Of a stretch of DNA of 12,645 nucleotides, positions 1,755 to 12,645 are shown one piece after another. A program made the position numbers and the translations under genes. The notes under the pieces were generated by a model. The model was not told where the DNA came from. It did not search any database and worked only from the letters and a program-made list of their open reading frames with translations. Numbering within the stretch: the stretch's first letter is position 1; each line of letters begins with the position of its first letter. This stretch comes from a virus. Lineage: Duplodnaviria > Heunggongvirae > Uroviricota > Caudoviricetes. The stretch is taken from the IMG/VR virus record IMGVR_UViG_2778261591_000019. One strand, 5' to 3'.

Positions 1755-2345
1755 TTAGCATGATTCAGGGGAAACCCCAATATTAAATATGAGTGACTCT
1801 CCTGAATCAGCATAATAATGTAATATTATTGACTTACGTTGTTTTCTTGCTTCGTAGAATAAACGCTCTTGCGGCGATAATTTGTGAAAACTGCCGGATG
1901 CACAATATATGTTTTTTAACTTTTCGCTGGTTGCTTTTATTGTATCTTCTGAGATGTATTTTAGGTATTTATCCGTATAGATGTTGCTACTATAAGAAAT
2001 TAATGTTTTGCTGTTGTTGTGATGTATTGTATTTTTATCGTTGAAGTCTGTATTTTTATTTACTGTCATTAGGTTTTTAATGATTACATGTAATGCAATA
2101 GTCTCCCCATCATCAATTCCATATTTGATGTCATAGTCAGTATATTTATTTGTTATACCGCTTCCTGATAGCGGCACTATGTACTCTGAGAAAAATGAGT
2201 TTGCCGCGTGACCATCAAGAGCAATAGCAGTTTTTTTGTGGTAAAAATAAAACAATATTGAGAGAGTCAAAATAATAGCGACGCCTAATGCAACCTTTAA
2301 TATAGATATGGTTTTCAAAATATCGCTCCTTGTTGTAACATACAT
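1755..2345 (-). CDS. Hypothetical single-pass membrane protein in an AT-rich island; candidate superinfection-exclusion-type moron
   Basis: About 200-codon ORF in visibly AT-rich DNA, where long ORFs are unlikely by chance. Predicted N-terminal TM helix (ISILKVALGVAIILTLSILFYFY) followed by an N/K/Y/S-rich soluble domain. Start ambiguous (ATG 2345 or TTG 2366), no clear SD. Sits where sieA lies in P22-like phages. Confidence 0.5.
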   Translation of the reverse strand: MYVTTRSDILKTISILKVALGVAIILTLSILFYFYHKKTAIALDGHAANSFFSEYIVPLSGSGITNKYTDYDIKYGIDDGETIALHVIIKNLMTVNKNTDFNDKNTIHHNNSKTLISYSSNIYTDKYLKYISEDTIKATSEKLKNIYCASGSFHKLSPQERLFYEARKQRKSIILHYYADSGESLIFNIGVSPESC

Positions 2346-2378
2346 CAGTAATGTGGCGTTTTTCAATTGTATTAAAGA

Positions 2379-2408: not shown

Positions 2409-2840
2409 CTATTCAGGTATTTCAATTCCAAAACCATCTGCATCCCATGAGTTTTCACAGATGATGTAACCTAGTTCATTGAGCTTATTAAATGTTTTTT
2501 CAAAGATGATCTGGTAATCATTATCTGCAAGTGATTCCAGTTCAAGGTCATTAAGGTTTATATAAAAACTTGTATGTCCAAGTGTTATTTTCTTATTGAT
2601 TTCATTAAAAGTTCTTTTGAAAATAATATTTGATATTTCATGCCGTGCATTGTTTGCAATAATTTTTGCTTCATAAGCAGAAATTACGTCATCTTCATGA
2701 ATATCTTTCAGAAAGCTGGTGTCAAGACGTTGTACTATTTCAGCGTTCATTGAGCGCTTATTGGCTTTTGCAGAAATTTCTATTTTTTCTTTTACTTCAA
2801 CGGGAAGTCTGATCCTTAGTTGTGGATCTTCTCTGCTCAT
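2409..2840 (-). CDS. mnt: Mnt-like ribbon-helix-helix repressor with an extra C-terminal domain of about 60 aa
   Basis: N-terminus MSREDPQLRIRLPVEVKEKIEISAKANKRSMNAEIVQRL matches the P22 Mnt RHH motif (DP..F..R.P.EV.EK....A.AN.RSMN.E..Q). ATG at 2840 preceded by a GGTGA SD. Divergent from the arc-like/ant genes as in P22 immI. 143 aa versus 83 aa for P22 Mnt. Confidence 0.75.
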   Translation of the reverse strand: MSREDPQLRIRLPVEVKEKIEISAKANKRSMNAEIVQRLDTSFLKDIHEDDVISAYEAKIIANNARHEISNIIFKRTFNEINKKITLGHTSFYINLNDLELESLADNDYQIIFEKTFNKLNELGYIICENSWDADGFGIEIPE

Positions 2841-2870
2841 GTTCTTCACCAAATATTGAGTTACTTGCAA

Positions 2871-2960
2871 TGATTGAAGTATGCCTCACCGTGTGCTTGA
2901 CATCAATGACGCACGGTGTGACAATTGTTTTGCCCCACGGTGGGGCTAAGGAGATATGAA
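2871..2960. promoter_or_regulatory. Divergent promoter/operator region (Pant-like promoter with RHH operator half-sites)
   Basis: -35 TTGACA (2897-2902), 17-nt spacer, -10 GACAAT (2920-2925), reading toward the arc-like gene. Heptamer CACGGTG at 2912-2918 and 2936-2942 and its reverse complement CACCGTG at 2887-2893, about 24-25 bp apart. SD TAAGGAG at 2947-2953. Confidence 0.45.
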
Positions 2961-3128
2961 ATGCAAAAAGCAAAAGAGATGTGTCAACGACGAGTTCGTT
3001 TTCCGGACGATGTGAAGTTAGCTATTGAAAGAAATGGCGAAAAAGAATGCCGAAAGTTCAATACAGAGATTATCTATCAGCTGAGGAAAGTGTATGGACT
3101 CACTGGTGAGAAGAATAGCGTGGCATAA
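2961..3128 (+). CDS. arc: Arc-like ribbon-helix-helix repressor (55 aa)
   Basis: ATG 2961 with strong SD (TAAGGAG, 7-nt spacing). 55 aa, similar in size to P22 Arc (53 aa). RVRFPDDVKLAI...NTEIIYQLRKV fits the RHH beta-strand/helix pattern. Immediately upstream of the antirepressor gene. Confidence 0.65.
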   Translation: MQKAKEMCQRRVRFPDDVKLAIERNGEKECRKFNTEIIYQLRKVYGLTGEKNSVA

Positions 3129-3200
3129 AACAGCGAAGCCCAACGGTGGCCAGACCGTCAGGGCTTCAGTATCGTAAAACTACGTATAGGAATTAACGAC
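3127..3200 (-). ncRNA. Predicted sar-like small antisense RNA across the antirepressor RBS/start
   Basis: Minus-strand promoter inside the first codons of ant: -35 TTGATA (complement of 3230-3235), 17-nt spacer, -10 TATACT (complement of 3207-3212). Minus-strand terminator: stem GAAGCCC/GGGCTTC (3135-3141 with 3161-3167) followed by a T-tract (complement of 3127-3134). Predicted length about 70 nt, as for P22 sar. Confidence 0.35.
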
Positions 3201-4145
3201 ATGACGAGTATAGCAACAGCGCTATCTACTATCAACGTGCCATTCCACGGCGCAGAACTTTATGTTGTCAATCACAACGGAGAACCGTACACCCCAATGA
3301 AACCTATCGTTGAAGGCATGGGTATGGATTGGGCTTCACAGTTTACGAAAATGAAGCAGCGGTTTAAAACCTGCATTGTGAAAATCACAATGCAGCTTCC
3401 TGGGGATGAACAGCGCCGTGAGATTATTTGTTTGGCACTTCGCAAACTTGCTGGCTGGTTGCAAACCATCAGCCCTAACAAAGTCCGCCCTGAAATCCGC
3501 GACAAGGTAATCCAGTATCAGGAAGAGTGTGACGATGTTCTCTACGAGTACTGGACTAAAGGCCATGTGGTTAACCCACGCAAAGCTAAAAAGGCGTTGC
3601 CGGGTAAAATAACCACTGAACAGCAGGAAGCCATTAAACAACTCGTCATGAGTCGCGGTCAGTCTCTGCCAAAAGAAAAACAGGCTAAGGCGATGATCAC
3701 CATGTGGTCGTCACTGAAATCTCATTTTGGCTGTTCGTACAAAGAAATTGATGAAGATCAATTCGCCGAAGCGTTGTCTCTTGTTGCTCGGGTTCCGCTT
3801 GAAGGGGAGCATCTCCCTGCTGGATCTGCATCAGAGAATGATGAAGTGGCAGTCAAGATGTTAGATGCGCTTCGTGAGGCAATTAAAACACAGACAAAAT
3901 GTTATGGTTATCCGCTGAAGCCCGGCTACCGCAGTCTGATTCATTCGCCGTCTGGTGTTCTCGGCCTGACGGAGAACTCACTGCTGATGAATCTGCTTAA
4001 CCAGTTACAGGACGACGGGCACGATGTATCGGGCGCGGCGGCGGAGCTGACCACCATGTTCTGCTACATCGTCGGTGTGAGCAAGTGCCTGCGTGATATC
4101 CAGACCCACGCGGAGTACATCAACGACAAGGCAGGGTTCTTCTGA
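3201..4145 (+). CDS. ant: Phage antirepressor (Ant); N-terminal AntA-type domain plus a C-terminal module shared with two other genes in the window
   Basis: 314-aa ORF directly after arc in the immI arrangement, with ATG 3201 and AGGA upstream. N-terminus VPFHGAELYVVNHNGEPYTPMKPIVEGMGMDW resembles antirepressor N-domains. C-terminal 77 aa are near-identical to the C-terminus of the 5121-5813 gene. Confidence 0.75.
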   Translation: MTSIATALSTINVPFHGAELYVVNHNGEPYTPMKPIVEGMGMDWASQFTKMKQRFKTCIVKITMQLPGDEQRREIICLALRKLAGWLQTISPNKVRPEIRDKVIQYQEECDDVLYEYWTKGHVVNPRKAKKALPGKITTEQQEAIKQLVMSRGQSLPKEKQAKAMITMWSSLKSHFGCSYKEIDEDQFAEALSLVARVPLEGEHLPAGSASENDEVAVKMLDALREAIKTQTKCYGYPLKPGYRSLIHSPSGVLGLTENSLLMNLLNQLQDDGHDVSGAAAELTTMFCYIVGVSKCLRDIQTHAEYINDKAGFF

Positions 4146-4169
4146 CAGAACGGCGGCACAGGGATGTGC
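3915..4169. repeat. Inverted repeat, left copy (3' end of ant plus about 24 bp downstream)
   Basis: Reverse complement of 5099-5353 matches 3915-4169 at about 95% identity by hand alignment (about 12 mismatches over 231 coding bp); similarity continues past the stop codons (CGGCGGCACAGGGATGTGC). Confidence 0.85.
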
Positions 4170-4281: not shown

Positions 4282-4827
4282 TTATTCCTTCCATTTATCA
4301 GAAAAAAGATCTTCTTCTAAAGGCATTGGTTCTGTTTTTGTTTTCTCAAAGAATTGATAACTGATAGTGATTGCTTCCTCTTTAAACTCTTCTTGCTCAG
4401 TTATGTTGTGGGCATCTGCGTCAACAAAAAACATAACCAGCGCATCACGATTGTGATTTACCGAATAAACTAAAAAGCAATCACTTGTTGGTATGCATTT
4501 TACTTGCACAGACGCTATATTTTTCCATGCATCCCAAGATGATTTTTTACCAGTGTGTTTTTTATCACTATCTTCTGGAATATAGTCTTGGTTATCGACA
4601 TGAGTATGCCTGACATTTAGTTTAAGCATTTCTGTCGGACGAGCAAATGCAGCATCTTTACCAAGAGATGGATGGTATCCCGTTTTCCAATACTGGGTAA
4701 AGGCATCAGATACTTTCTTCAGCTCAAGATCAGATGCACAAAGGGCCGAGAAATTTTGCGTATGCAATACTCGACCCTTATATCTGACAATTTGATTTTT
4801 ATCATTCTGCGACGCAGACGAACTCAT
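4282..4827 (-). CDS. YafO-like toxin candidate (181 aa)
   Basis: ATG 4827 with AAGGA SD. By-eye similarity to E. coli YafO as I recall it: GKDAAF..P..LKLNVRHTHV versus GRDALY..P..IKFERVAHIHL, and FLVYSV...ALVMFFVDADAH versus HLVYCQ...WLLIAILKPEPH. The YafO sequence is from memory and unverified. Confidence 0.55.
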   Translation of the reverse strand: MSSSASQNDKNQIVRYKGRVLHTQNFSALCASDLELKKVSDAFTQYWKTGYHPSLGKDAAFARPTEMLKLNVRHTHVDNQDYIPEDSDKKHTGKKSSWDAWKNIASVQVKCIPTSDCFLVYSVNHNRDALVMFFVDADAHNITEQEEFKEEAITISYQFFEKTKTEPMPLEEDLFSDKWKE

Positions 4828-4981
4828 AATTTTCCTTATTGTTACGAGAATCAAAGAAAGCTCGGGATACGCGACTTGCGTGATCTTTTGTCATAGTAAC
4901 TTTTACGTACTCTACGCTTCCATTGAAAGAACGTCTTGCGGCAGCTTGCGCTCTACGCATCTGCAATTTTTCGTTTCGCAT
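4802..4981 (-). CDS. Small basic ORF (59 aa) overlapping the start of the toxin-like gene; candidate cognate antitoxin/regulator
   Basis: Not in the supplied ORF track (below size cutoff). ATG 4981 preceded by GAGG SD; stop TGA at 4804-4802 overlaps the downstream gene start by 26 nt. Promoter-like -35 TTGGTT (complement of 5031-5036), 17-nt spacer, -10 TGTAAT (complement of 5008-5013). Product MRNEKLQMRRAQAAARRSFNGSVEYVKVTMTKDHASRVSRAFFDSRNNKENYEFVCVAE. Confidence 0.35.
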   Translation of the reverse strand: MRNEKLQMRRAQAAARRSFNGSVEYVKVTMTKDHASRVSRAFFDSRNNKENYEFVCVAE

Positions 4982-5041: not shown

Positions 5042-5056
5042 TTACCCTTGAGGTAA
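5042..5056. promoter_or_regulatory. TTACC-N5-GGTAA palindrome immediately upstream of the -35 of the toxin-like operon promoter
   Basis: TTACCCTTGAGGTAA read directly; same palindrome family as 6080-6096, 6173-6189 and 7292-7308. Confidence 0.35.
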
Positions 5057-5098: not shown

Positions 5099-5353
5099 GC
5101 ACATCCCTGTGCGCCGCCCGTCAGAAGAACCCTGCTTTGTCGTTGATATACTCCGCGTGAGTCTGGATATCACGCAGGCATTTGCTCACACCAACGATGT
5201 AGCAGAACATGGTGGTCAGCTCCGCCGCCGCGCCAGATACGTCGTGCCCGTCTTCCTGTAACTGGTTCAGCAGATTCATCAGCAGTGAGTTCTCCGTCAG
5301 GCCGAGAACACCAGACGGAGAATGAATCAGGCTGCGGTATCCGGGCTTCAGTG
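5099..5353. repeat. Inverted repeat, right copy (3' end of the second antirepressor gene plus flanking bases)
   Basis: See left copy; the two copies encode nearly identical C-terminal peptides KPGYRSLIHSPSGVLGLTENSLLMNLLNQLQ(D/E)DGHDVSGAAAELTTMFCYIVGVSKCLRDIQTHAEYINDKAGFF on opposite strands. Confidence 0.85.
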
Positions 5354-5813
5354 GGGCGCTGTAGGTTTTGTTCTCTATCTTCATTGCCTGCATTACTGCT
5401 GACGCCGTGGCGTTGGCTACCTGGTCGGCAACCATCTTTATGCGTTCTTCCTGCGGGAGCGAGTTTTTAATGTAACTTCCAGTGCGGCGGATCTGAGGAA
5501 GAACCTCACCTGTAACCCATTCAAGAAATCTGAATGCTCTCGTTCCCTCTGTCATTGCCTCTTTGCAACGCAGAATAAGGATGTAGAGACCTGATTCTGA
5601 AACGATGGATAGTTCTTGTATTCCACCAGGGGTCTGTATTGAATACAGCCCCTTTTTGTTCCAGCCTTTTTTATCAAGTTTTCTCGCTTGTGTAACATCA
5701 ATATTCAAAGCATTGCACACATCTTTGGTGACAAACCAAGGTTCTCCGTCAATCATGAACATACGGATCTGGCAGGATGACTCAAAGGAAAAGATGGAAG
5801 GTTTGGTATTCAT
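5121..5813 (-). CDS. Second antirepressor: Bro-N-type N-terminal domain plus the shared antirepressor C-terminal module (230 aa)
   Basis: ATG 5813 with AGGTG SD. N-terminus IRMFMIDGEPWFVTKDVCNALNI...SESGLYILILRCKEAMTEGTRAFRFLEWVTGEVLPQIRR has classic Bro-N/antirepressor motifs. C-terminus as in ant. Confidence 0.8.
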   Translation of the reverse strand: MNTKPSIFSFESSCQIRMFMIDGEPWFVTKDVCNALNIDVTQARKLDKKGWNKKGLYSIQTPGGIQELSIVSESGLYILILRCKEAMTEGTRAFRFLEWVTGEVLPQIRRTGSYIKNSLPQEERIKMVADQVANATASAVMQAMKIENKTYSAPLKPGYRSLIHSPSGVLGLTENSLLMNLLNQLQEDGHDVSGAAAELTTMFCYIVGVSKCLRDIQTHAEYINDKAGFF

Positions 5814-6079
5814 GGCGATCACCTTTGTAGTTAGGTTAATCACCACCGCTGAGACCAATCAGATGGTGGTGAACTGTGCAGAGTTGGTCTTACCGGCTAC
5901 AAAGGAACCCGGCGCACCTTTCGGTGCCCCCACACAGCCCACCATAGAATAGGTGCGCTTTACACATAAAAAAACCGCTTATGCGGCATATGTGCCTCTG
6001 TAGTAATCCGGGAGACCAATCCCGGCACTGGATTTTGCCAGTGCCCGGTTACTATGGCACAGGATGAGTGCGATGTAAA

Positions 6080-6096
6080 TTTACCGTAAAGGTAAT
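6080..6096. promoter_or_regulatory. ATTACC-N5-GGTAAT palindrome (distal site upstream of the 6209 gene)
   Basis: ATTACCGTAAAGGTAAT read directly. Confidence 0.35.
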
Positions 6097-6172
6097 GATA
6101 AGCGCTGAGAAATATCAAAATCAACCGTATTTGGTTGATGGAGTTTAATGCTTGATCACCTGAAAGCAAGAT

Positions 6173-6189
6173 ATTACCTTTAAGGTAAT
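6173..6189. promoter_or_regulatory. ATTACC-N5-GGTAAT palindrome (proximal site, about 20 bp upstream of the 6209 start)
   Basis: ATTACCTTTAAGGTAAT read directly; preceded by ATCACCTGAAAG (6155-6166), which recurs at 7292-7303. Confidence 0.35.
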
Positions 6190-6208
6190 GTTATTGTGAG
6201 GAAAAGCA

Positions 6209-6937
6209 ATGGAAGTTTTCTGGATAGTTGTTGGTGTGGTTGCGGTGATTATTTATGTCCTTCACCAGAACAAGACTAAGATCTCTGATCGCACGGTCGT
6301 TAATCATAACAAAACGATAAAGACCGAAGATGGGGAGATAACGATTAATCGTACACAGGTGATAGAACACACCTCTACTCAGTTTCAAAAAACTGGAGGT
6401 AATGCGCCTAATATTTCCGCACCTCCTGCTTATGATAGTGAGGTAATCCAGACATATTATAAACAGCAGGAGTTAGCAAAAGAGAGGCAACTGATTCAGC
6501 CAAAGCCATTTACAGCAGAGCTTCCACCTGGAGTGTCAACGCGTCCGGCATATCATGGAAGATTCCCTGGTGATGACATATCGTCTCAGTCACCTAAAAA
6601 AGCACCTCAGGCAGTATCAGAGTCAGCAAGAATACCTTCTGTATCGCCGTCAAAAGAAGAATCAGCTAACAGAGTTTCAAGTGGCCGCAAGCAGTGTTTG
6701 CGATGCAGAATAAACCTTCCATATGAAAAATTCCGGAAATCGTCAAAAAATCCAGATGGATTGACTAAGTGGTGTGCAAGGTGTCTCGATGGCCCAAAGA
6801 ATACACGTCATATGAAGTGGTGCCCAATTTGTAATGTCCGCAGAAAACGAACCAGCTTTTATCCTAATAATCAAAATGCGGATGGTTTAATGGCATGGTG
6901 CAAAACGTGCTGGGACGAGCACAAAGCGAAACGATAG
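6209..6937 (+). CDS. Membrane-tethered protein with two tandem C-x2-C-x22-C-x2-C zinc-ribbon motifs (242 aa); function unknown
   Basis: ATG 6209 with GAGG SD. N-terminal TM helix (VFWIVVGVVAVIIYVL), S/P/Q-rich linker, then CLRC-x22-CARC and CPIC-x22-CKTC, each with a conserved P...N.DGL..WC core. Confidence 0.7.
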   Translation: MEVFWIVVGVVAVIIYVLHQNKTKISDRTVVNHNKTIKTEDGEITINRTQVIEHTSTQFQKTGGNAPNISAPPAYDSEVIQTYYKQQELAKERQLIQPKPFTAELPPGVSTRPAYHGRFPGDDISSQSPKKAPQAVSESARIPSVSPSKEESANRVSSGRKQCLRCRINLPYEKFRKSSKNPDGLTKWCARCLDGPKNTRHMKWCPICNVRRKRTSFYPNNQNADGLMAWCKTCWDEHKAKR

Positions 6938-6960
6938 GCCGCTCTTGCGGCCTTTTCTTT
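6937..6960 (+). terminator. Rho-independent terminator after the zinc-ribbon gene (possibly bidirectional)
   Basis: GGCCGC-TCTT-GCGGCC hairpin (6937-6952) plus TTTTCTTT; same stem sequence as the ant terminator at 4197-4212. Confidence 0.6.
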
Positions 6961-7216
6961 ATGTAGTTTGTTTTCGTAATTGTTCGGCACAATAGTCGAG
7001 ATGTGTTTGCAGATCCTGCATAGACATCTGTGAGCTGGTGACGTAGTTAATCAGTGCAGTCAGTTCGGCAAGTGGGCCATCGACATTAAATCCATCCTTA
7101 TCGAGATCCCGGAGTAATTTCATCAAGTGCGATCCCTCCACCAGTGACCTGACGCCTCCCGGCGTGTGAATCCTTTCGGTAAATCCCTCTTCCAGTGGAT
7201 AGTGATACTGCTGCAT
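6959..7216 (-). CDS. Stand-alone antirepressor C-terminal-module protein (85 aa)
   Basis: ATG 7216 with GGAG SD. IHTPGGVRSLVEGSHLMKLLRDLDKDGFNVDGPLAELTALINYV...DLQTHLDY aligns with IHSPSGVLGLTENSLLMNLLNQLQDDGHDVSGAAAELTTMFCYI...DIQTHAEY of both antirepressors, about 45% identity by eye. Confidence 0.7.
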   Translation of the reverse strand: MQQYHYPLEEGFTERIHTPGGVRSLVEGSHLMKLLRDLDKDGFNVDGPLAELTALINYVTSSQMSMQDLQTHLDYCAEQLRKQTT

Positions 7217-7291: not shown

Positions 7292-7308
7292 ATCACCTGA
7301 AAGGTAAT
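7292..7308. promoter_or_regulatory. ATCACC-N5-GGTAAT palindrome in the divergent promoter region between the Ant-C-like gene and the tailspike
   Basis: ATCACCTGAAAGGTAAT read directly; a further half-site TTTAAGGTAAT at 7348-7358. Confidence 0.35.
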
Positions 7309-7411
7309 ATCTGTTCGTATTTATGGGTTATCTATCCATATATGGTTTTTAAGGTAATAGAATAACCGGATATGCGGCGCAACGGGTGCTGCGACTATCT
7401 GGAGATTTAAC

Positions 7412-9406
7412 ATGACGGTCTCAACCGAAGTTGACCACAACGAATATACAGGTAACGGTGTTACAACTACGTTCCCTTATACCTTTAGGATTTTCCAGAA
7501 ATCTGATCTGGTGGTGCAGGTGATTGACCTTGACGAGAATATCACTGTGCTGGCTCTTGATACTGATTACGCAGTCACTGGTGCGGGAGGCTATAGCGGC
7601 GGTAATATAATACTGTCGAAGGCATTGGCCAACGGTTATCAGATCTCTATATCACGAGAGCTCCCGGTTACTCAGGAAACAGATCTGCGTAATCAGGGTA
7701 AATTCTTTGCAGAGGTGCATGAGGATGCGTTTGATAAGCTAACGATGCTGATTCAACAATGTCGTAGCTTGTTTCGTCTTGCACTTTGCAAACCATCAAG
7801 TATTGCAAACTGGTACGACGCTTTAAATAACAGGATTAGAAATCTTAAAGATCCAGAAAGCCCTCAGGATGCAGTAACTTTAAGTTATCTTGAAGGGTAT
7901 ATAGAAGGTGGTGATAGTACTTTGCGTCCAGATATTACAAGAACTGGAGCTGTAGGGAATAATATACAGCAAGCCATAAACTTATCTATAGCCGGTCAAA
8001 CTGTAATTACGATGAAAGATGATGAAATTGTATCTTCATTGTTAAATGAATATGGTGTTGAAATTGAGCAACGCAGGGGGCGTGTATTTAATACAGAAGG
8101 TGTTCAACTAACAACGTATTCTGACCCTCGTTCCCGTTTTGTAACTGGTGACCAATATCTTAATTATGTTATTAGCAAGATGATAAAAGCAGATGGCGTG
8201 GATAAATCACAGAAAACATATATTTTGTGGTCTGGTGACTCCACGATTGTTGGTGTTAACTCTGAATTATGGCCACCAGCAACTATTGCTGATTTTTATG
8301 CAAAAAGGTATGGAATTATTGATGTAAAAAATACATCGTTAGGTCATTCAGGTAAAACTCTATACGAATGGGGTAATTGGTATATTGATCAGGAATGGTC
8401 TGTTTTTTCTGCTGCTGATTTGATTGTTTTACGATGGGGAATTAACGATCCATATTATGGTTATACATTGGATCAAGTAAAAGACGCATTAGATAGAGGT
8501 CTTTCCAAGTTACGAAATAACAAATCAGTTTCCCAGCAATCAATTATTATCATGTCCCCAAACTCAACATCAGACACACCAAACGGACGTGATGAAAAAT
8601 GGTATGAACAGTTAACAGCCGTACTTAGAGCCAAAGCAAAACAATATAAGTGTATGTTTTTTGATACTTACGGTATGTGGCAGGATTCGCGAGGATCTGC
8701 TGGTAACTGGCTTGACGACCCTTATGGCGATGGCAGGGGAATACACCCAAACTCAACATTTAGCGCACAGATACATAAATTATTATTTGAATATATTTAT
8801 GGACCGTGTGCTGTTATAAATGGGAGTAGCAACCTTTTTTCTAACAATGGTTCTTCCATACAATTCATCAATAGCTCATATCCGCCAAATACTTTTCACA
8901 TGGGGACTTCATGGTGGAGAACAAACCCTGATGATGCTTCTTGGCCTCTTGACGGTGTTATTCAGGTTGATAGATTTGTTGACGGAATAGTAGTACAAAA
9001 AAATTATGGTTATTCTTCAGATAATGCTCGCGTTTGCTTAATGAGGATTGGAAGGATTAGTGAGAATACATGGAGTACATGGCGAGGTAATCAGTATGAT
9101 ATGAGTGGCATATTGCAAAATGGTTGGTCTGTAGGTGAGGCAAGAAGTGGAACATATCAGAAATCAGCCGAGGGCGTTGTTACTTTATCTGCTGTTTTAA
9201 CAGGTGGAAATACATCTGTTGGCACAGTTATTATGGTATTGCCAGAAGGGTTTAGACCAAAGAATGATATTTCTTATATTCCATCAGGTACTGATTCATC
9301 GGTTGCCCTCATTAATATACTTTCAAACGGTAAAGTTACAATTCAGAGCTATCCGTCAGGAACAGTTCTTGTAATTAATACGACATTCCCTTCATTAGTT
9401 AATTAG
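7412..9406 (+). CDS. Tailspike/tail fibre with conserved N-terminal particle-binding domain, central SGNH (GDSL-type) esterase domain and C-terminal beta-rich receptor-binding region (664 aa)
   Basis: ATG 7412 with GGAG SD. SGNH blocks: WSGDST (G275-D276-S277), LGHSGKT, WGINDP, GRGIHPN. N-terminal about 120 aa (NEYTGNGVTTTFPYTF...DTDYAVTG) resembles tail-fibre/tailspike anchor domains. Size and domain order fit an O-antigen-deacetylating tailspike. Confidence 0.8.
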   Translation: MTVSTEVDHNEYTGNGVTTTFPYTFRIFQKSDLVVQVIDLDENITVLALDTDYAVTGAGGYSGGNIILSKALANGYQISISRELPVTQETDLRNQGKFFAEVHEDAFDKLTMLIQQCRSLFRLALCKPSSIANWYDALNNRIRNLKDPESPQDAVTLSYLEGYIEGGDSTLRPDITRTGAVGNNIQQAINLSIAGQTVITMKDDEIVSSLLNEYGVEIEQRRGRVFNTEGVQLTTYSDPRSRFVTGDQYLNYVISKMIKADGVDKSQKTYILWSGDSTIVGVNSELWPPATIADFYAKRYGIIDVKNTSLGHSGKTLYEWGNWYIDQEWSVFSAADLIVLRWGINDPYYGYTLDQVKDALDRGLSKLRNNKSVSQQSIIIMSPNSTSDTPNGRDEKWYEQLTAVLRAKAKQYKCMFFDTYGMWQDSRGSAGNWLDDPYGDGRGIHPNSTFSAQIHKLLFEYIYGPCAVINGSSNLFSNNGSSIQFINSSYPPNTFHMGTSWWRTNPDDASWPLDGVIQVDRFVDGIVVQKNYGYSSDNARVCLMRIGRISENTWSTWRGNQYDMSGILQNGWSVGEARSGTYQKSAEGVVTLSAVLTGGNTSVGTVIMVLPEGFRPKNDISYIPSGTDSSVALINILSNGKVTIQSYPSGTVLVINTTFPSLVN

Positions 9407-10257: not shown

Positions 10258-10876
10258 ACAATTCCAGCGAGCTGCAGGTATTAGCGAGGCGCTGGCCGCT
10301 CGCTGGTTCTCGCATATAACTTCTGCGATGAAAGAGTTTGGTATCAGCAAACCAGAAGATCAGGCAATGTTTATTGCTCAGGTCGGGCATGAGTCTGGAG
10401 GCTTCACCCGGTTGCAGGAAAATTTCAACTACAGCGTAACCGGATTGGCTAACTTCGTTCGGGCTGGGCGTCTCACTCAGGGGCAGGCTAATGCACTTGG
10501 TCGCCGTGCTGGTGAACCACCATTGCCACTCGAGCGCCAGCGCGCGATCGCAAATCTGGTGTACAGCAAACGCATGGGGAACAATGCCCCTGGTGATGGC
10601 TGGAATTACCGTGGGCGCGGGCTTATCCAGATTACCGGTTTGAATAACTATCGTGACTGTGGAAACGGTCTGAAAGTTGACCTGCTGGAGAATCCTGAAC
10701 TGTTGGCGCAGGACGAATACGCGGCTCGTAGCGCGGCGTGGTTCTTCTCCAGCAAAGGTTGCATGAAGTATACCGGCGATATTGCACGTGTAACTCTGAT
10801 TATCAATGGTGGCAGGAATGGCATCGACGACCGGTGCGCGCGGTACGTCACTGCCAGTAAGGTGCTGGCTGTATGA
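10247..10876 (+). CDS. Endolysin, glycoside hydrolase family 19 (chitinase-like lysozyme) type
   Basis: ATG 10247 with GAGG SD. Motifs [12 protein letters not shown] and [13 protein letters not shown] are typical of GH19-type phage endolysins (from memory). Position between holins and spanins. Confidence 0.8.
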
Positions 10877-11355
10877 TCTGGGCATTCGTAAAAGCATACT
10901 GGAAACAGATGCTTATCGTGTTGATGCTTGCTGCTCTGTTCATCGTCGGAGTGGTTGCCTGGAATATACACGGCAGCCGCCAGTACGATGCCGGGTATGC
11001 GCAGGCGGAAGAAGACCGCAAAGACGAAGAAGACAAAGTTCGTCAGTACTACGAACAGGAGAAAGTGACCAATGAACGTGAAGCTCAGCAGAGGATCGAC
11101 CAGGCGCGCAATGATGCTCTTGATGCTGCCGCTCGCGCTGGCCGGTTGCAGCAACAACTCTTTGCCATCCGTGAGTATCTCAGGCAGTATAACGCCATTG
11201 TCGGCGCTGGGACGTCAGCCGCAGACACCGGAGTTTTGCTTGCCGACGTGCTCAGCAAATCTCTCGAGAGAAACAGACAACTGGCAGAGTATGCTGACCG
11301 GGCAGCCGAAGCCGGAAGAGTCTGCGAAAAACAGTACGACACCCTGACCAGATAG
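10873..11355 (+). CDS. i-spanin (Rz-like): N-terminal TM anchor plus periplasmic coiled coil
   Basis: ATGA start/stop overlap with the endolysin (10873-10876). TM helix [18 protein letters not shown] followed by a charged helical region; contains an embedded +1-frame lipoprotein ORF. Confidence 0.65.
11072..11347 (+). CDS. o-spanin (Rz1-like outer-membrane lipoprotein) embedded within the i-spanin gene
   Basis: Signal peptide with lipobox ([26 protein letters not shown]), Pro/Ser-rich mature region; entirely inside the Rz frame, ending 8 nt before it. Start could instead be ATG 11111. Confidence 0.55.
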   Translation: MNVKLSRGSTRRAMMLLMLPLALAGCSNNSLPSVSISGSITPLSALGRQPQTPEFCLPTCSANLSRETDNWQSMLTGQPKPEESAKNSTTP

Positions 11356-11574: not shown

Positions 11575-12114
11575 TTAATTAAACCAGCTGTCCGATTTGT
11601 TCTCTTCTGCTTTGCCCACGCTTTTCATCAGATCGCGACCGCCTTCAGTCATATTTCTGTTGGCGTCAGCTTCAGATTGCACCACATCGGTTTGCGCAGC
11701 TTTGTGCTTCAGTTCCTGATCGATAAATTCGTTTTCTCGCTTAACGCGGGCTTCTTCTTTCGCCAGCGCCAGTTTTTGTTTCTGAATCTCTAAGCTGCGT
11801 AGCTCATCTTCATAACTTTGATCGCGTTTTTTGTCCGCAGAGGCTTCGGCGTCCAGTTTATCCTGACGAGCTTTCTTATTTGCTGCTGCCGTTGCCGCTC
11901 TTTTGTTAGCGGCGGCCTGGGCATTTGCGCGACGTTGCTTCTCTTGCTGGATTTCCCTGTTGCGCTCCGCGACCCATTCGTCATGCTGCCTTTGCTCTTC
12001 ATTTTTACCTTGCTGTTCAGCTTCTGCTACAGCAGAGAGTTGATCCTGCAATGATGAGGCGATAGCCGGATAGCTTAAGGAGGCCAAGATGGCGCAAAGA
12101 AAAACTTTCTTCAT
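11575..12114 (-). CDS. Secreted coiled-coil protein (signal peptide; Ala/Lys/Glu/Gln-rich), 179 aa
   Basis: ATG 12114 with strong AGGAGG SD. Signal peptide MKKVFLCAILASLSYPAIA; remainder strongly helical/charged. No family recognised. Confidence 0.6.
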   Translation of the reverse strand: MKKVFLCAILASLSYPAIASSLQDQLSAVAEAEQQGKNEEQRQHDEWVAERNREIQQEKQRRANAQAAANKRAATAAANKKARQDKLDAEASADKKRDQSYEDELRSLEIQKQKLALAKEEARVKRENEFIDQELKHKAAQTDVVQSEADANRNMTEGGRDLMKSVGKAEENKSDSWFN

Positions 12115-12129
12115 GACTCCTCCTGATTA

Positions 12130-12645
12130 TTAGCTCTTTTCAGGACATTTAGTATTTGGCTGAATACGCGTTTCGTTATACGTTGTGGTAATAACAACGG
12201 CTAAACCTGTCGTAAACTGGCACTCTTTACCCACCTGGGTAGAGGTATACACTTTGGTGCCTTCCTTATATGTTAAAGAAACACCTTCCACTAAGGTTTT
12301 ATCATTCACCATAGAACCCGCTGCCGCGCCTACAGCTCCGCCGCCAACTGCCCCTGCCGTCGTTCCGGAATTGCTGCCAGAACCGACGTTGTGGCCGATA
12401 ACACCGCCAGCGACTGCGCCAATAAGCGCGCCGAAGGCTTGTGCGTTCCGTTTATTTTGGGAGTTGTCTACGGCAACTTTTGCGGGAAGAATGGAAATAA
12501 TATTAACGGTTTTAGTTTCTTGTTTGGTATTCAGTTGATCGGTTTGATAAACATCGGCGGCATGATCGTCAGCATTTGACTGGCATCCTGCCAGAGTGAA
12601 TGACGCTAACATTGCCACAGGCAGAAGACATTTTTTAAATTTCAT
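12130..12645 (-). CDS. Outer-membrane lipoprotein with glycine-zipper domain (YcfJ/SlyB/Pcp-like, 17-kDa-antigen family), 171 aa
   Basis: Lipobox LAGC after a signal peptide. GALIGAVAGGVIGHNVGSG...GAVGGGAVGAAAG closely resembles the YcfJ/SlyB glycine-zipper core (from memory). ATG at the window edge (12645). Confidence 0.7.
   Translation of the reverse strand: MKFKKCLLPVAMLASFTLAGCQSNADDHAADVYQTDQLNTKQETKTVNIISILPAKVAVDNSQNKRNAQAFGALIGAVAGGVIGHNVGSGSNSGTTAGAVGGGAVGAAAGSMVNDKTLVEGVSLTYKEGTKVYTSTQVGKECQFTTGLAVVITTTYNETRIQPNTKCPEKS

Follow-up and report, generated by a model that had tools for sequence, protein, structure and literature searches.

The window, by which we mean the whole stretch of 12,645 nucleotides of phage DNA analysed here, carries on its plus strand at positions 6209-6937 an open reading frame of 242 codons plus stop, whose predicted product joins a membrane anchor to a pair of zinc modules. 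The question raised by this locus is what such a protein does for the phage. An earlier note, made from the sequence alone, had assigned the product to no characterised family and had proposed that it binds nucleic acid or a host factor at the inner membrane, for example in superinfection exclusion or anti-sigma-like sequestration. A Shine-Dalgarno motif read from the sequence (GAGG, 6198-6201) lies 7 nt before the ATG.

The full-length protein was modelled with AlphaFold2 using the family alignment, and residues 155-242 were also modelled alone. Hydropathy analysis placed the top 19-residue window at the very start of the protein (residue 1 onwards), and the model returned a helix over residues 3-24 (6215-6280; hydrophobic core 3-19) with block pLDDT values of 91 and 86 over residues 1-20, thus confirming the single N-terminal transmembrane helix, which is conserved in the alignment. 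Only M1 and E2 precede the helix, E2 being the sole charged residue, and K22, K24 and R28 follow it. By the positive-inside rule a cytoplasmic C-terminus, as the earlier note had proposed from the same charges, is therefore plausible, and this location suits Cys4 zinc sites. A Sec signal peptide was also considered and dropped, since there is no basic n-region.

The helix is followed by a conserved juxtamembrane segment (residues 29-52, 6293-6364), predicted with low confidence as a beta-hairpin (strands 29-39 and 42-52, pLDDT 50-60) and including the conserved columns T39, G42 and E43. Next comes a variable, predicted disordered linker (residues 53-158, 6365-6682; pLDDT 40-63), which differs in length and sequence among homologues. 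It had been described as rich in Ser, Pro and Gln; Ser and Pro do prevail over residues 61-158 (14 and 13 residues) with Ala third (10), whereas Gln is less prominent. The C-terminal part consists of module 1 (residues 159-197, 6683-6799; Cys 163/166/189/192) and module 2 (residues 198-242, 6800-6934; Cys 205/208/231/234). The unit C-x2-C-x22-C-x2-C thus occurs twice, 12 residues apart, with cysteine spacings of 2/22/2/12/2/22/2, and the two copies align without gaps over 40 positions with 14 identities (pairwise E 1e-7), in agreement with the duplication previously noticed. The last 84 residues bear a net charge of +15, and the whole protein contains six histidines (19, 33, 54, 116, 201 and 238).

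A search of 5.8 billion proteins returned 32 relatives, all from Enterobacterales and all labelled 'hypothetical', and the identical protein sequence was present on 236 contigs. The eight cysteines, on whose conservation the earlier note had staked its reading, are kept in full-length homologues across Enterobacterales: among 29 homologues (38-95% identity) C163, C166, C189 and C192 are invariant and the other four nearly so, the lone exception being a truncated sequence. The transmembrane helix and the following segment of about 35 residues are also kept in the alignment, and the zinc domain is highly conserved. Between genera, pN ranged from 0.04 to 0.32 in the zinc domain, from 0.15 to 0.45 at the N-terminus and from 0.30 to 0.66 in the linker, with pS at 0.6-1.0, i.e., with saturated synonymous sites; the single unsaturated pair gave a zinc-domain dN/dS of 0.034. 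These values indicate strong purifying selection on the zinc domain and the N-terminus, relaxed on the linker, and together with the conservation mark the reading frame as a real, conserved and uncharacterised temperate-phage gene.

The zinc-ribbon geometry was then assessed on the models. The C-terminal domain was predicted confidently, with pLDDT above 90 in the full-length model and a mean of 87.7 for residues 155-242 alone. Each module folds into four strands and a helix (beta4-alpha topology), with a CXXC between strands 1 and 2 and a second one where the helix begins. The full-length model had no Foldseek match in the PDB at E<=1 because the disordered linker dominates it, and both full-length and C-terminal sequence profiles retrieved only PacI among solved structures (E 0.06-0.11). 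In fold the modules come closest to the zinc repeats of Hpy99I and PacI, and the structural matches in BFVD are HNH/ββα-Me enzymes from phages and giant viruses. Hpy99I is built from a pair of beta4alpha2 repeats, in either of which hairpin 1 and helix 1 carry the two CXXC motifs. Its active site (Asp148/His149/Asn165) lies in the second repeat; the first has no catalytic role and uses hairpin 2 to read the major groove (PMC2699513). The window protein shows the same repeat design, namely two tandem repeats of two hairpins and a helix, in which hairpin 1 bears one CXXC and the helix N-terminus the second, and shares with Hpy99I, PacI and T4 endonuclease VII one structural zinc per repeat. It differs from these enzymes in being membrane-anchored and in having neither a nuclease domain nor the catalytic Asp-His or Asn. 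As no His or Asp-His is invariant among the 29 homologues, both modules resemble the non-catalytic Hpy99I repeat, and an active HNH nuclease was ruled out for want of conserved catalytic residues; the Pfam HNH (PF01844) and Endonuclease_7 (PF02945) models had no match in the 242-aa protein. The topology suggests that the most conserved polar and basic stretches, K174-F-x-K-S-S-K180 and R211-R-x-x-T-S-F-Y-x-N220, fall in the second hairpins.

Profile comparisons extended this picture to a larger family. PHROGs named endonuclease VII, HNH, Lar-like and primase were matched through the zinc ribbon only, the first three on module 2. The Lar-like match (PHROG 5558) covers positions 7-47 of 130, that is, the zinc-ribbon part, and Pfam Lar gave no match, so the protein does not belong to the Lar restriction-alleviation family. 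Pfam Stc1 (PF12898) scored 20.5 bits (E 7.4e-4), below its gathering cut-off of 24.8 bits, although the protein does possess the tandem unit with eight conserved zinc-binding cysteines and shares with Stc1-like repeats the motif K-x-C-x2-C...F...DG(L)...C-K-x-C. Relatives reached through the family profile exceed the gathering score (56 bits for P0072 and 60 bits for P0062). Since such multi-repeat relatives pass the cut-off, distant Stc1 homology is likely, even if formal membership of the window protein fails; in addition, the Pfam family is defined without a membrane anchor, which the window protein has. In fungi, Stc1 serves in the nucleus as an adaptor that links RNAi to chromatin, and the Stc1/LIM-type precedent, S. 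pombe Stc1, is one of protein binding and not of DNA binding.

An exhaustive search with the family profile gave 1726 clusters at E<=1e-3, i.e., a repeat family of at least 1700 clusters at 50% identity, in which the module recurs up to 10 times per protein. Of the 62 relatives with several repeats, 31 match Pfam Stc1 above or close to its cut-off, 9 contain Endonuclease_7 and 8 contain HNH domains, and others carry SF1 or SF2 helicases, HEAT repeats or wHTH domains. The double module also occurs alone (85-94 aa) and behind unrelated transmembrane helices, a transmembrane helix plus coiled coil, or a J-domain. The Hpy99I/PacI-like folds and the fusions to HNH, endonuclease VII and helicase domains among relatives lend indirect support to the proposed nucleic-acid binding. 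The predicted modules are thus most similar to the zinc repeats that beta-beta-alpha-Me/HNH endonucleases use for structure and for reading DNA, and they belong to a large Stc1-like repeat family whose members are often fused to HNH/EndoVII nucleases.

Scans of the 242-aa protein against Pfam, NCBIfam and PADLOC returned nothing above threshold, the sole match among PADLOC-DB v2 defence components being TniQ at E 2.1, and PHROG 6762, to which the protein belongs, is annotated 'unknown function'. Searches of the papers in the literature library found neither a characterised homologue nor a described operator in epsilon15/phiV10-like phages. The absence of a characterised family, as first reported, is thus borne out: the domain superfamily is known, while the membrane-tethered architecture, the PHROG 6762 family and its role are uncharacterised.

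We then examined how the gene is carried. The cassette in the window is 100% identical to the chromosome of E. coli OkiPb01711 and 96% identical to phage TL-2011b, an epsilon15/phiV10-like podovirus in which the gene is frameshifted and annotated as a misc_feature only. Relative to phiV10 it is an insertion of about 870 bp (window positions ~6086-6958), placed between the isrK-C4-ant unit and a conserved 85-aa gene beside the tailspike gene; about 12 related phages match its flanks only. The gene was found in 133 of 5426 complete E. coli genomes (~2.5%), always on the chromosome. All six phage records that contain it are temperate, and it is absent from the virulent phages of a collection of 50,697 records. 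With a promoter-like site, a Shine-Dalgarno motif and a terminator of its own, and with its presence or absence varying between otherwise collinear phage genomes, the insertion has the features of a moron; the difference from classical morons is that its promoter carries a putative operator. We read the gene as a self-contained accessory cassette carried by a temperate E. coli phage of the epsilon15/phiV10 type.

The cassette promoter reads TTGATC-17-TACCTT on the plus strand, with the -35-like hexamer at 6152-6157 and the -10-like TACCTT at 6175-6180. The latter is overlapped by a 15-bp palindrome, TTACCTTTAAGGTAA, at 6174-6188, a putative repressor operator. A second copy at 6081-6095 lies at the divergent isrK-C4-ant promoter (TTGATA-18-TACCTT on the minus strand), 93 bp away centre to centre, so that the two promoters stand back-to-back with the same layout. 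Downstream of the gene, a terminator-like hairpin (AGGCCGC-TCTT-GCGGCCT, plus strand, 6936-6953) is followed by a T-rich tail; the cassette thus has its own terminator, as claimed before, and equivalent hairpins follow the homologues at four other loci (L003, L004, L007 and L014).

The palindrome had been taken for a shared promoter motif. It is indeed present four times in the window, but it behaves as more than a promoter element and looks operator-like. The pattern TTACC-N5-GGTAA has an expected count of 0.24 in the window, and none of 200 shuffled sequences reached four copies; phage TL-2011b holds 14, a number reached by none of 100 shuffles. The cassette carries a consensus copy of this dispersed 15-bp element (TTACCTnnnAGGTAA), which flanks the phage repressor gene: in TL-2011b two copies lie on each side of a 194-aa HTH gene and others upstream of int, terS and several other transcription units. 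The HTH protein is 98.5% identical to the repressor of vB_EcoP_ZX5, whose overexpression blocks the lytic cycle (PMC9782041), and an unrelated Pectobacterium prophage has a 42%-identical repressor flanked by the same palindrome. The palindrome with a TTGAC-like hexamer 15-17 nt upstream also precedes the zinc-ribbon gene in Enterobacter, Citrobacter-like, Serratia and Pectobacterium prophages, and a Providencia phage has another palindrome, ATTAACC-N5-GGTTAAT, at the same place. The TTACC-N5-GGTAA motif is missing from those genes of the window that are likely expressed in lysogens, namely the mnt-like operon and the terminal lipoprotein genes.

The palindrome thus looks like the operator of the phage repressor overlapping a core promoter, and this putative arrangement argues that lysogens of this phage type keep the gene repressed. 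The -10 element inside a consensus operator, the antirepressor-like layout and the absence of the palindrome from lysogen-type genes together suggest that the gene is probably off in stable lysogens and on after infection or induction. The opposite role for the palindrome-binding protein, as an activator of the promoter, was considered but is unlikely given the overlap of the site with the core promoter.

The distant homologues were next located in their genomes. In Aeromonas phage phiARM81mr a homologue of the same architecture (29% identity) begins 19 nt downstream of cI and is followed by a terminator and an OL/PL-like site, which is the position of rexAB in lambda, and in Marinobacterium another begins 18 nt downstream of an S24-type cI. 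On a metagenomic contig (L018) mnt ends 11 nt before the homologue, arc/ant run divergently and ejection-protein genes lie further along, which is the position of sieA in P22 (PMC10883804). At three Acinetobacter loci it adjoins cI or an Arc-like gene, in Oceanobacter and Pseudoalteromonas it abuts the 3' end of cI in convergent orientation, and in Yersinia phage YeP5 it is antisense to the late operon, with a lipoprotein-like gene behind it. Antirepressor or repressor genes are almost always among its neighbours and ejection-protein genes often adjoin it, while no partner gene is conserved across loci, the neighbours being HicAB, a lipoprotein, a 287-aa ORF, an SNase or none. Helix, hairpin, linker and double zinc module are kept together across several gammaproteobacterial orders. 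This place beside phage immunity genes suggests that the protein blocks competing phages.

Taken together, the data are best explained by a membrane-anchored, nucleic-acid-binding exclusion or defence factor, a reading that we hold tentatively, at somewhat below an even chance. The single helix is strongly predicted to anchor the product in the inner membrane, N-out and C-in, and a flexible tether of 50-110 residues would put two non-catalytic Cys4 modules into the cytoplasm. The strongly basic pair would bind nucleic acid at the cytoplasmic membrane face and would probably capture or obstruct foreign phage DNA, or the cytoplasmic end of its ejection conduit, at entry. In several distant phages the gene appears to be co-transcribed with the lysogeny repressor (cI or mnt), like rexAB and sieA; in the phage type of the window its own promoter over a dispersed operator copy would probably be on when the repressor is absent, hence soon after infection or induction, like T4 imm. 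Exclusion or defence fits best because the gene is temperate-only and dispensable, occupies rexAB and sieA slots, lies close to ejection genes and would be expressed either with the repressor or immediately on its loss. Superinfection exclusion, as originally proposed, therefore gains positional support from the homologues right after cI or mnt, but the operator in the window, by arguing for repression in lysogens, complicates a classical prophage-expressed role. Neither by sequence nor by profile (PADLOC) is the protein similar to known exclusion or defence proteins.

An early lytic function, in which the protein handles the phage's own or the host's DNA at the membrane, is unlikely, yet it survives best among the alternatives. 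It might anchor the incoming or replicating genome like p16.7 of phi29, whose combination of membrane protein and DNA-binding part the layout recalls (PMC4974454), or drag the host nucleoid to the membrane during host takeover. The strongly basic zinc domain suits either variant, and the promoter over an operator with its antirepressor-like layout predicts the expected expression on infection or induction. However, a lytic-only or host-damaging function is hard to reconcile with a gene that in three phages appears to share a transcript with cI or mnt and in five others sits next to a repressor gene. Moreover, the gene is dispensable, being missing from phiV10 and most close relatives and broken in TL-2011b, and it does not occur in the virulent phages of the collection.

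Rather less probable again is a regulator that would use the zinc modules as a Stc1/LIM/RING-like protein-binding adaptor and tune the lysis-lysogeny switch by holding at the membrane a repressor, antirepressor, sigma factor or protease of host or phage. The near-constant company of repressor and antirepressor genes, the weak Pfam Stc1 match and the fusion of a J-domain to the double module (P0103), which suggests client targeting, speak for it; exclusion genes, though, are equally expected beside immunity genes, and nucleases and helicases are the commonest fusion partners. With a periplasmic part of some 2 residues, the protein has no sensor domain. The anti-sigma form of this idea, put forward in the earlier note, was rejected because the motif H-x3-C-x2-C, which ZAS factors carry in an N-terminal cytoplasmic anti-sigma domain ahead of a transmembrane helix, is absent from the 242-aa protein, anti-sigma Pfam families gave no match even at E<=10, and the domain order is reversed, with the transmembrane helix first; the only histidine with x3 spacing to a C-x2-C, H201, precedes the pair 205/208, which belongs to the Cys4 site of module 2. 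Finally, the cassette might be what is left of an HNH homing-endonuclease-type element, decaying or selfish and functionless for the phage. This reading would account for modules like those of phage HNH/EndoVII homing-type nucleases, for the insertion relative to phiV10 and for the TL-2011b frameshift, but it is very improbable given the lack of a nuclease domain, the full architecture retained across several orders, the strong purifying selection on the zinc domain and the exact protein on 236 contigs. The probability left beyond the favoured exclusion or defence factor and these three alternatives falls to other functions.

The dispersed palindrome suggests that epsilon15/phiV10-like phages run most of their transcription units with one repressor, as P1 does, and such control would help to predict which accessory genes are silent in lysogens. 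In the furthest-reaching version of the exclusion or defence reading, which is less likely still, the factor would be spread across Gammaproteobacteria in rexAB and sieA slots and, in epsilon15-like phages, would be wired directly to the prophage repressor through the dispersed operator network. If the protein does act in exclusion or defence, a very large and so far unannotated family of Stc1-like zinc-ribbon repeats would acquire its first function. The idea is easily tested, as it concerns a single gene for 242 aa present in ~2.5% of complete E. coli genomes.

Comparison with known systems sets these readings in context. The p16.7 protein of phage phi29 has an N-terminal transmembrane anchor and a C-terminal DNA-binding domain and is expressed early. 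It is an integral membrane protein that recruits phage DNA to the membrane (PMC4974454), and the window protein resembles it as an integral membrane protein with a probable nucleic-acid-binding part. The two are not homologous, the window protein having no Pfam match to the p16.7 family, and p16.7 differs in its coiled coil and homeodomain-like DNA-binding dimer and in serving protein-primed replication in a virulent Bacillus phage.

With lambda RexA/RexB the likeness lies in the slot directly downstream of cI, seen in phiARM81mr and Marinobacterium, with a terminator and an OL-like site next to it. In the Rex system, membrane and DNA-binding roles are divided between two components, whereas the window protein, which has no homology to either, is a single polypeptide with one transmembrane helix and no evident channel role. 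The likeness to P22 SieA is again one of genomic slot only, through the L018 homologue after mnt and the many homologues that abut ejection-protein genes; in the window itself the sieA-like slot is held by a different gene (1755-2366). P22 SieA has three transmembrane helices, its family three or four, together with a cytoplasmic FxRYPxEAxxFNK motif and no zinc domain (PMC10883804). The window protein shows no sequence similarity to it, has one helix and lacks that motif, and its gene has a promoter under a putative operator. If it does act in exclusion or defence, its mechanism would be distinct from that of the membrane blockers SieA, Imm and HK97 gp15: DNA-reading zinc modules taken over from mobile nucleases and held at the membrane by a tether.

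The zinc-ribbon gene is transcribed divergently from an immunity unit in which a C4 antisense RNA (5862-5949(-); Rfam match of 78.6 bits) and isrK (5968-6044(-); 74.7 bits) form a tandem pair 5' of the gene for a Bro-N antirepressor (5121-5858(-)), and this unit is an immI module of the P1 type. A second immI module, of the P22 type, is formed by a gene for a 153-aa Mnt-like protein with an Arc domain (2409-2870(-)), a small arc-like ORF (2925-3128(+)), the sar antisense RNA (3132-3199(-); 45.2 bits) and a P22_AR_N antirepressor gene (3201-4145(+)). As modules of both types are present, the phage therefore has two different antirepressor systems. The slot that sieA occupies in P22, directly 3' of the Mnt-like gene, is taken here by an ORF (1755-2366(-); phrog_8033, function unknown) whose 203-aa product has an N-terminal TM helix and which is itself a candidate exclusion gene.

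The two antirepressors carry a near-identical C-terminal module, encoded by the arms of a 270-nt inverted repeat (3877-4146 and 5120-5389) that are 90% complementary and bound a segment of 973 nt. Within this segment a 190-aa ORF (4282-4854(-); phrog_1651) matched the Pfam YafO toxin family at 26.1 bits, barely above the cut-off of 25. A conserved 85-aa gene adjoining the tailspike gene (6959-7216(-); phrog_450) showed a weak match to an anti-repressor PHROG and looks like a stand-alone copy of the same C-terminal module.

The related phage TL-2011b has a copy of the zinc-ribbon gene (34564-35238) that appears to be frameshifted near the N-terminus, since the tblastn match begins at residue 18; its sole annotation is a misc_feature of 1089 nt, which also spans the C4 and isrK region. 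Other settings of the zinc module were taken from proteins P0103, P0045 and P0107, which share it, and from loci L107 and L110. The module is preceded by a J-domain in one setting and forms the C-terminal end of an SF1 helicase in another, and helicase, HEAT and wHTH domains accompany up to ten copies of it in a further one. It follows a TM helix and a coiled coil in Haemophilus, and in Neisseria a single copy comes after a TM helix with a linker rich in Pro.

An Rz-like gene (10873-11355(+)) contains in another frame an embedded Rz1-like lipoprotein ORF (11072-11347(+)). Two genes at the right end, 11575-12114(-) and 12130-12645(-), encode N-terminal signal-like sequences, and the latter product has a lipobox and a TL-2011b counterpart annotated as an outer membrane lipoprotein. 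Both genes lack the 15-bp palindrome TTACCTnnnAGGTAA and look like classical lysogen-expressed morons.

This palindrome occurs in the window at 5042-5056, upstream of the YafO-like ORF, and at 6081-6095, 6174-6188 and 7293-7307, and TL-2011b has 14 sites. Another short motif, (C)ATATGTGGTT(TTT), lies at 7338-7350(+) and, in TL-2011b, near 8270 and 14870. Its copies adjoin palindromes, on either the downstream or the upstream side, close to the tailspike gene and two further units in TL-2011b, and it possibly represents a late-promoter or activator element. No description of this dispersed palindrome turned up in the literature that could be searched. Because the palindrome is dispersed at most phage promoter regions and on both flanks of the repressor gene, its distribution suggests that one repressor controls many operators, in a network like that of P1.
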